DNA of 17,806 nucleotides from Candidatus Wukongarchaeum yapensis (lineage in GTDB: Archaea > Asgardarchaeota > Wukongarchaeia > Wukongarchaeales > Wukongarchaeaceae), in the NCBI GenBank assembly GCA_016840425.1, contig JAEOSI010000021.1, positions 1 to 17,806 on the forward strand. The letters are read 5' to 3'. Position numbers and translations under genes: made by a program. Of this stretch, positions 4,592 through 5,452 are shown piece after piece. Numbering within the stretch: position 1 is the first letter of the stretch; each line of letters starts with the position of its first letter. A model generated the notes under the pieces. That model did not search any database, had not been told where the DNA came from, and saw only the letters and a list, made by a program, of their open reading frames with translations.

Positions 4592-4826
4592 CCAATACAC
4601 CCCATAAAAAAATAAAACCCCTCATCAAAAAAATCACCCTATCCTCTCCCTATCAGCTCGCAGTTTCTCCAAAACAATAAACCCACAAAAATAAACTCAC
4701 TCTAAAATTAAACTTAAAACTAAAAAACATAAACATTAAAAATAATGAAAAACCTACTCTTTACCAATTAATTGGAAAACTAATGTACGGGCCCGTAGCT
4801 CAGACTGGAAGAGCGCCCGCTTGGCA

Positions 4827-4848
4827 AGTAATAAAAAACAACCCGAAA
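4827..4848 (+). other. tRNA-Ala intron 1, canonical 37/38, 22 nt
   Basis: BHB motif: central helix TTGG(4821-24)/CCGA(4843-46), bulges CA|A and AA|T, inner helix GT/AC. Confidence 0.9.
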
Positions 4849-4864
4849 TGCGGGAGGCCGCGGG

Positions 4865-4905
4865 TGGCTGGCTGAAAACGCCGTTACATCAGCCATGTCC
4901 GCGAA
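4865..4905 (+). other. tRNA-Ala intron 2, non-canonical 53/54 (T-arm), 41 nt
   Basis: Central helix CGCG(4859-62)/CGCG(4900-03), bulges GG|T and AA|T, long inner helix including GGCTGA/TCAGCC. There is no outer helix, so this is a relaxed HBh' motif. Confidence 0.9.
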
Positions 4906-5030
4906 TTCAAATCCCGCCGGGTCCACTATGATATCCAGCCTCAGGGGGGAATTATTCCCCTCGGGCCCTCCAATGCCATTTAATCATTTTAAAATAAAAT
5001 AGAAAGAGGAACCCTTAAAAAACAAAAAAA

Positions 5031-5037: not shown

Positions 5038-5077
5038 CTATTGATGCAAAAGCTTTTTGGGCGGGCGAGTGGTCTAG

Positions 5078-5112
5078 AGCCCGGACGGTTAATCTACTGC
5101 TTGGGCGGGCAG
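5078..5112 (+). other. tRNA-Val intron 1, D-loop 15/16, 35 nt
   Basis: BHB: central helix GTCT(5072-75)/GGGC(5107-10), bulges AG|A and AG|C, inner helix GCCCGG/TTGGGC. Confidence 0.85.
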
Positions 5113-5120
5113 CCCGGTTA

Positions 5121-5145
5121 ACGTTATCTTAAAGAAACGGTCGAA
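5121..5145 (+). other. tRNA-Val intron 2, 21/22, 25 nt
   Basis: BHB: central helix CGGT(5115-18)/GTCG(5140-43), bulges TA|A and AA|T, inner helix CGTT/AACG. Confidence 0.85.
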
Positions 5146-5167
5146 TGATACTGCCCTGACGTGGCAG

Positions 5168-5182
5168 TAGTGTCATGCCGCG
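5168..5182 (+). other. tRNA-Val intron 3, 43/44 (start of variable loop), 15 nt
   Basis: 15 extra nt between the anticodon stem and T-stem. Of the registers 42/43 to 47/48, only 43/44 gives a 4-bp central helix (TGGC 5162-65 / GCCG 5177-80). The flanking helices are weak. Confidence 0.7.
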
Positions 5183-5257
5183 TGGTCCCCGGTTCGAATC
5201 CGGGCTCGCCCACCACTTTCCTGATTTCCTATTTTAGGTTTTTTTCGGTGGTTTAGA

Positions 5258-5452
5258 ATGCCTAGAGAACTGTTTGATCCTGACGAATTTATGGAAATAA
5301 TGGAAAGGGCAACTGAATGCAGGGTAAAAAGAAAAGGCGATATAGTGAAATTAAAGTTAAGAACAAAGCGTATGCTTTATACGTTGAAAGTAACTCCAGA
5401 AGAGGCGGAAGTTATTCTTAGTAGGGTGAAGGTCCCAGTTATTGAAGTTTGA
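5258..5452 (+). CDS. rpl38e: 50S ribosomal protein L38e
   Basis: 64 aa with the L38e signature MPRE...VKLKLRTKRMLYTLKV; GGTGG SD upstream. Confidence 0.92.
   Translation: MPRELFDPDEFMEIMERATECRVKRKGDIVKLKLRTKRMLYTLKVTPEEAEVILSRVKVPVIEV

Follow-up and report, generated by a model that had tools for sequence, protein, structure and literature searches.

A D-loop intron of an Asgard archaeal tRNA-Val(GAC) gene, probably templated from the leader, acceptor and D-loop of the same gene

The Asgard archaea carry, to our knowledge, the most heavily interrupted tRNA genes known. Non-canonical introns located in the D arm, and associated with bulge-helix-bulge (BHB) motifs, have been described in this group (Valentin-Alvarado et al. 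2024, PMC11291895; Goswami et al. 2026, bioRxiv 10.64898/2026.10.13.758758). The 2026 census of Asgard tRNAs revealed many recent intron gains and left their route of arrival as the central open problem; the routes tested there, namely copying between tRNAs, mobile elements and reverse transcription, were not supported and did not include local duplication (bioRxiv 10.64898/2026.10.13.758758). In Thermoproteales, transposed tRNA introns have been reported, where a similar intron sequence is found in different tRNA genes (Fujishima et al. 2010, as described in PMC4090602). Reviews name transposition alone as a source of archaeal tRNA introns, and full-text literature searches returned no paper proposing local duplication for BHB introns. 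The locus described here shares with the Asgard D-arm introns a multi-intron gene, a D-loop intron missed by standard detectors, an apparently recent, lineage-specific gain and a relaxed BHB motif; it differs from the introns of the census in having a readable footprint of its source, together with intron-less alleles. The comparisons reported below indicate that this intron was probably templated from its own gene, namely from leader, acceptor and D-loop, and not from elsewhere.

The window analyzed is a whole contig of 17,806 nucleotides (17.8 kb), and belongs to a metagenome-assembled genome, indicated as G000, of 277 contigs, 2.16 Mb and 38% G+C. A tRNA-Val(GAC) gene, single-copy in G000, occupies positions 5063-5215 of the plus strand and contains three BHB introns of 35, 25 and 15 nt, the spliced product being 78 nt long. 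The exons reported in Table 1, once joined, were recognized by ARAGORN as tRNA-Val(gac), with a normal cloverleaf and an encoded CCA. The same three introns were recovered independently by using our own solver, which considers all site pairs conforming to BHB geometry with a central helix of 4 bp and scores the spliced product as a cloverleaf. Both procedures agree with the gene model of the initial annotation, where a 35-nt intron at 15/16 is followed by an 8-nt exon 2. The unspliced gene was missed by ARAGORN and by the Rfam tRNA model, in gathering as well as in E-value mode; the lone overlapping match, a weak alignment to the tmRNA model in which the intron sequence GGGCGGG is paired with the 3' acceptor strand, was discarded. 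A splicing endonuclease is encoded in G000 (one PF01974 match, 96.9 bits, G000:C113:1065-1319). The genes for a presenilin-family protein (PF01080; 5463-6398, minus strand) and for ribosomal protein L38e (5258-5452) flank the tRNA gene, and were used as anchors for fetching orthologous loci; L138, L139, L140 and P0006, reached through the same two proteins, did not extend to the tRNA gene or offered no DNA, and were left out of the comparison.

Table 1. Features of the tRNA-Val(GAC) gene, with positions numbered along the window.
Feature	Position	Strand	Description
5' leader	5052-5062	+	GCTT, T-run, GGGC; leader segment 'copy A', aligned with L142 and L095/L096
Exon 1	5063-5077	+	Acceptor 5' strand GGGCGAG, U8 G9, D-stem 5' strand GUCU, A14 G15
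Intron 1, 35 nt	5078-5112	+	Between tRNA positions 15/16; removal restores a canonical D-loop
h' helix, 5' strand GCCCGG	5079-5084	+	Equals the D-loop sequence at 5112-5117; pairing probability 0.94
Intron 1, distal stem-loop	5086-5099	+	CGGU / hexaloop / ACUG; CGGTTAA resembles the exon 2 / intron 2 junction
'Copy B' of leader and acceptor	5099-5110	+	GCTT GGGCGGG C; h' 3' strand 5101-5106, H' GGGC 5107-5110
Exon 2, 8-nt micro-exon CCCGGTTA	5113-5120	+	D-loop positions 16-21
Intron 2, 25 nt	5121-5145	+	Central helix CGGU (5115-5118) : GUCG (5140-5143)
Exon 3	5146-5167	+	D-stem 3' strand, position 26, anticodon arm; anticodon GAC 5158-5160
Intron 3, 15 nt	5168-5182	+	At 43/44, register ambiguous by 1-2 nt; UGGC (5162-5165) : GCCG (5177-5180)
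Exon 4	5183-5215	+	Variable loop, T arm, acceptor 3' strand, discriminator A, encoded CCA

The splice sites of intron 1 are located at 5077|5078 and 5112|5113. In its central helix GUCU (5072-5075), belonging to the D-stem strand, is paired with GGGC (5107-5110), the bulges being AG|A and AG|C; 4 bp of helix, 3 nt of bulge on each strand and a cut after the second bulge nucleotide define an intron of 35 nt. On the intron side the motif continues with the 6-bp helix h', GCCCGG (5079-5084) : UUGGGC (5101-5106), which has a probability of 0.94 in partition-function folding, followed by a 1x1 internal loop and by a CGGU:ACUG stem closed by a hexaloop. The exon-exon helix h is reduced to a single pair; the motif is thus of the relaxed HBh' form, which needs an endonuclease of broad specificity. 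The central helix includes two G-U pairs, its probability is about 0 in global thermodynamic folding, and no covariation is seen because its sequence is invariant across alleles. Thermodynamic support being limited, the helix is supported by the splice-site geometry and by intron-less alleles (L142 and L095/L096, see below), which carry exactly the predicted junction between exon 1 and exon 2. As read from these features, intron 1 would be a real BHB intron of relaxed type, a predicted substrate of the archaeal splicing endonuclease and ligase. The BHB motif of intron 3 is also relaxed, with outer helices almost absent. The first bases of intron 1 (GAGCCCGGA, 5077-5085) are in addition perfectly complementary to positions 5199-5207, where the T-stem 3' strand is followed by the first part of the acceptor 3' strand; in the precursor the two segments offer a long-range alternative pairing.

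Comparison of orthologous loci, a check proposed in the initial annotation, revealed five kinds of alleles. Intron 1 is present in G000, in L141 and in G001, a same-genus genome ('Candidatus Hodarchaeota archaeon DZ1B.339'); it is absent in L142, a Logan contig, and in L095/L096, which are JGI and SMTZ contigs. In L142 and L095/L096 exactly the 35 nt are missing, the upstream flanks are collinear with G000, and introns 2 and 3 are kept; intron 2 is found in all alleles, with a divergent sequence in L095/L096. The 5' end of the intron-less alleles reads GCTT|GGGCGGG|TGGTCTAG|CCCGGTTA, and these alleles equal a single copy of the duplicated unit proposed below. L141 is 97% identical to the G000 allele, with C in place of both T5089 and T5102, while the G001 intron differs at 10 of its 35 positions and has AUUCGG:UCGGAU as h'. 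Since this helix is maintained by two double compensatory and two one-sided changes in G001, and by a U-to-C change in L141, intron 1 appears to be under selection for structure, not for sequence. In the leader, TTT and GGGC are additions common to G000 and L141 only, GCTT directly preceding the acceptor in the intron-less relatives; the acceptor is GGGCGAG/CTCGCCC in G000 and L141, and GGGCGGG/CCCGCCC in G001, L142 and L096. Exon 1 and the T arm / 3' end of the G000 gene have the same sequence as in tRNA-Val(CAC), on contig C254, a coincidence suggestive of misaligned gene conversion between the two Val isoacceptors.

The 17 Val(GAC) genes examined in other Asgard families have no insertion at 15/16, and for this reason intron 1 is considered a derived gain of a small clade. 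In G002, which is the sole further species of the class, a pattern search did not find Val(GAC), and no intron-less form was seen in the contigs of four runs covering the locus. Within the clade, signals from the flanks disagree. Over the downstream 0.9-1.2 kb G001 is nearer to L142 (94.7%) than to G000 (88.6%), whereas the tRNA and its trailer link G001 with G000 by intron 1, by the variant of intron 3 and by 16 nt of trailer. Quartet site patterns of the four lineages conflict (15, 10, 5), and rooting of the three- and four-lineage tree by presenilin outgroups, at about 40% identity, gave too weak a signal, with 4, 1 and 1 candidate shared-derived sites. As the flank phylogeny is reticulate, absence in L142 and L096 could be a loss instead of a primary absence; judged from the alignments, intron 1 is probably homologous to local sequence in either case. 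The upstream flank of G001 is unrelated to that of the other lineages, homology with G000 starting at the first tRNA base (window 5063; L002, G001:C4, position 1501), which places a rearrangement breakpoint at the 5' end of the tRNA. The trailer segment of about 16 nt (5216-5231) is distributed like intron 1: G000, L141 and G001 have it, L142 and L095/L096 lack it.

Three pairs of repeats, all exact as first annotated, link intron 1 to the sequences around it: TTGGGCGGGC at 5057-5066 and 5101-5110, AGCCCGG at 5078-5084 and 5111-5117, and CGGTTAA at 5086-5092 and 5115-5121. None of them has a further copy in the window; the 10-mer TTGGGCGGGC occurs just 4 times in the 2.16-Mb genome, and its pair was also reported by an independent repeat search. 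A single collinear alignment, including gaps of 11 and 4 nt, joins segment 5101-5121 to 5057-5092, and the global alignment of copy A to copy B has a score reached by 17 of 5000 shuffles. The order of the blocks is the one predicted for a tandem duplication: the 5' part of the intron, where AGCCCGG is followed by CGGTTAA(T), resembles the downstream exon 2 / intron 2 junction, and the 3' part resembles the upstream leader and exon 1. The initial description of 5057-5092 and 5101-5121 as an imperfect tandem duplication agrees with the gapped, collinear similarity, which is significant, but not with an ungapped comparison: identity at offset 35 is 14/35, and Tandem Repeats Finder (score 30) reports nothing at intron 1 because the copies differ by large indels.

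The 10-mer is present in G000 as originally described, but is in part specific to the G000 lineage, as T5102, which completes it, is C in L141 and G001, and the leader GGGC is a later addition, confined to G000 and L141; T5102 may be derived in G000. The intron-less alleles, whose leader is the same, match the intron better: the 3' part of the G000 intron has in common with their leader and acceptor the 11-mer GCTTGGGCGGG, composed of 4 nt of leader and the whole acceptor strand, a similarity scored as high by 3 of 5000 null introns.

Significance was evaluated by a survey of 34 introns in 27 tRNA genes of G000, in which every intron was compared both with its own flanks and with those of the other introns. 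Intron 1, the top outlier of the survey, scores 34 against its own flanks, compared to 21.4 +/- 2.5 for the flanks of 31 other introns (z 5.1, rank 1/32), and its longest exact match is 10, against 7 or less in the comparisons. The BHB introns of G000 are not generally exon-like; a footprint of this kind was found in only 2 of the 34, intron 1 and an intron of tRNA-Pro(UGG) described below. The observed score was reached by none of 5000 dinucleotide shuffles, and by 22 of 20000 random introns built with the same BHB pairing, which answers the call of the initial annotation for a significance test under BHB constraints. The constraint-aware p is about 0.03 once corrected for the 34 introns examined.

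This last value leaves some room for a chance resemblance aided by constraint, in which tRNA 5' ends and D-loops, being G+C-rich and partly palindromic (GGGC, CCGG), give rise to short direct repeats. The intron copy of TTGGGCGGGC coincides exactly with the 3' strands of h' and H, a role that escaped the initial annotation; the two repeat blocks are not independent, because the D-loop GCCCGG and the leader/acceptor UUGGGC are mutually complementary, and neither G001 nor L141 conserves the 10-mer. Against such an origin stand the rarity of the score among random introns satisfying the BHB and the 32 other BHB introns of G000 devoid of such similarity. Moreover, the match runs into 4 nt of non-coding leader, which the splicing constraint does not explain, since pairing constrains complementarity and not direct similarity to the leader; it also includes GC at 5099-5100, tied to the leader by no pairing constraint. 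The order of the blocks fits a tandem copy, and CGGTTAA(T) is conserved in all intron-bearing alleles. Chance resemblance is consequently considered unlikely.

A comparably improbable alternative is that the intron arrived otherwise, by transposition or some unknown insertion, before the split between G000 and G001, and was later partly overwritten in the G000 lineage with local sequence, copied from leader/acceptor and exon 2 through a process like gene conversion or replication slippage. The G001 allele would agree with it, since its h' is different and its local resemblance is mostly lost, the similarity to the intron-less allele having a p of about 0.04; so would the seemingly derived T5102 and the other small local rearrangements of G000 and L141 (GGGC addition, growth of the T-run, exon 1 identical to that of Val(CAC)). 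Searches for a donor intron in G000 and G001 were nevertheless negative. BLAST comparison (blastn-short) of intron 1 against G000 returned only chance matches of 10-13 nt elsewhere, and the G001 intron, allowing up to 3 mismatches, was found only at its own locus across G001, G000 and G002. Identical introns at other tRNA loci, which according to the initial annotation would favour transposition, were looked for in G000 and G001 and not found; a transposed intron family of the Thermoproteales type was discarded as well, no similar intron being found in other tRNA genes of the two genomes. In addition, the G001 intron still matches, in its 5' part, the exon 2 / intron 2 junction of L142 at 13 of 16 positions and keeps the GGGC-AG end, and matching both strands of a 6-bp helix to two local sequences would require at least two coordinated conversion events.

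The proposal that intron 1 was born from local sequence, and is not a foreign intron inserted in the gene, was already advanced in the initial annotation and is sustained, with moderate confidence, by the intron-less alleles, with their 11-mer leader match, and by the lack of copies elsewhere in the genomes searched. As its likeliest course, a two-step model may be formulated. The first step would be a tandem duplication of about 39 nt, extending from leader position -4 (GCTT) through acceptor, D-stem and D-loop to about 10 nt into intron 2. Since this unit took in the leader together with the entire 5' part, an intact gene, which RNase P could mature, would have persisted as the downstream copy, and the duplication would have been harmless at birth. 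The second step would be a deletion of 5-6 nt, removing the D-stem strand (TGGTCT) of the downstream copy; this sequence is absent from the second copy in all three intron-bearing alleles. Through the deletion, GGGC-AG would have become a pairing partner of the upstream GUCU, while the upstream D-loop GCCCGG would pair with the downstream leader/acceptor UUGGGC to form h', the two helices together making up a BHB. From then on exon 1 would be provided by the upstream copy, and splicing would be obligatory. Later drift, limited by pairing alone, would have eroded the footprint, strongly in G001 and slightly in L141. For the order of events, we infer that duplication came before deletion.

A role in the control of processing was also considered, in which the leader-like and exon-like segments would be a functional mimicry, selected for competition by the leader or as a decoy site for intron 2. 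On paper, the two copies each of UUGGGC and GCCCGG permit alternative pairings, and CGGUUAA is kept in the intron of all three intron-bearing lineages. Folding does not support the suggestion, made in the initial annotation, that the leader competes for the inner helix: the probability of the leader:GCCCGG pairing is about 0.000, and that of the hairpin is 0.94 with or without the leader; furthermore, neither the leader motif nor GCCCGG/UUGGGC is conserved in G001, where the region upstream is unrelated. The suggested decoy 5' splice site for intron 2 fares no better, as its CGGU lies within the distal stem of intron 1 itself, folding being uninformative for both the true and the decoy helix. 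Selection for mimicry is thus regarded as very improbable. As for a repeat collapsed or made chimeric by the assembler, a doubt raised at the outset and justified by the 277-contig metagenomic assembly, its probability is negligible, since the locus is found without gaps or changes in independent assemblies, i.e. JGI contig L137 (99.9% identical to G000 over 4192 nt) and bridging Logan contigs from two further studies (X4 record 9, X6 record 18), and in diverged but collinear versions in L141 and G001.

The tRNA-Pro(UGG) gene of G000 (contig C156, minus strand, 2637-2771) contains a 23-nt D-loop intron in which the adjacent tRNA sequence is duplicated cleanly, in tandem. Intron and following 23 nt are identical at 18 of 23 positions at offset 23 (z 5.6), compared to 9 or less at other offsets, a duplication in the strict, ungapped sense, and the central helix is formed by the palindrome CTAG paired with its duplicate CTAG. 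This case shows how a BHB core with equivalent cut sites is obtained at once when the duplicated unit contains a palindrome of 4 nt. The two introns are alike in being located in the D-loop, in deriving, as it seems, from their own neighboring sequence and in belonging to the same genome. They differ in that the Pro(UGG) intron is a clean repeat, with a palindromic helix and no leader, whereas intron 1 of tRNA-Val includes three indels and the leader, and its helix is not palindromic. Judged by these repeats, the Val intron is the older or the more rearranged of the two.

Other insertions were noted in the course of the analysis. The neighboring tRNA-Ala(GGC) gene, at 4789-4925, contains a canonical intron, to which a 41-nt intron in the T arm (about 4865-4905) is added in G000 and L141. 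The latter is exactly absent in L142 and L095/L096, and its central helix pairs the palindrome CGCG with a second CGCG; comparison with its own flanks revealed no similarity beyond chance. An unrelated tRNA-Val(GAC) gene with the same anticodon arm, from an uncultured archaeon (L090, CAZYEE010000315.1), contains an insertion of about 28 nt in the D-loop, right after TCTAG, in which no evident likeness to Val intron 1 was seen; the contig scan with the 17-nt anticodon arm, from which this gene came, otherwise gave mostly chance matches in bacteria.

Taken together, the Val and Pro(UGG) cases suggest that tRNA introns can arise in place by small duplications. As a tentative generalization, small tandem duplications might be the arrival route of many Asgard D-arm tRNA introns, the central helix being provided either by a palindromic tetranucleotide (CUAG in GUCUAG, CCGG in the D-loop) or by complementary duplicated parts; those spanning the 5' leader would be neutral at birth and obligatory after decay of the downstream copy, in the manner of a constructive-neutral ratchet. 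Such a general route, if true, would answer the question left as central by the 2026 census. At the Val locus the source of a young intron can still be read, intron-bearing and intron-less alleles occur in collinear flanks, and the same genome offers a second, cleaner case; a concrete mechanism of intron arrival thereby becomes testable.

With the transposed introns of Thermoproteales, as far as they are described in PMC4090602, intron 1 has in common the late gain, at the DNA level, of a non-canonical BHB intron; the difference is that in those families the intron recurs across tRNA genes, while the source of intron 1 would be the same gene.

A parallel may be found outside the archaea. Eukaryotes are the sister lineage of Asgard archaea, and a duplication route for tRNA introns would parallel the tandem-duplication route proposed for eukaryotic spliceosomal introns. 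Gain of spliceosomal introns by tandem genomic duplication was reportedly proposed by Rogers in 1989, and an experimental example is said to have been provided by Hellsten and coworkers in 2011. In both routes, two equivalent splice sites result from a duplication within the gene, and the original product is regained once one unit is excised. The signals are different, since the spliceosomal route uses AG|GT, whereas the BHB route relies on a protein endonuclease and a ligase which recognize an RNA fold. Unlike in the spliceosomal route, in the Val case the fold would come from the complementarity of duplicated parts, and the unit would span the 5' end of the gene, so that the downstream copy could be functional even when unspliced.
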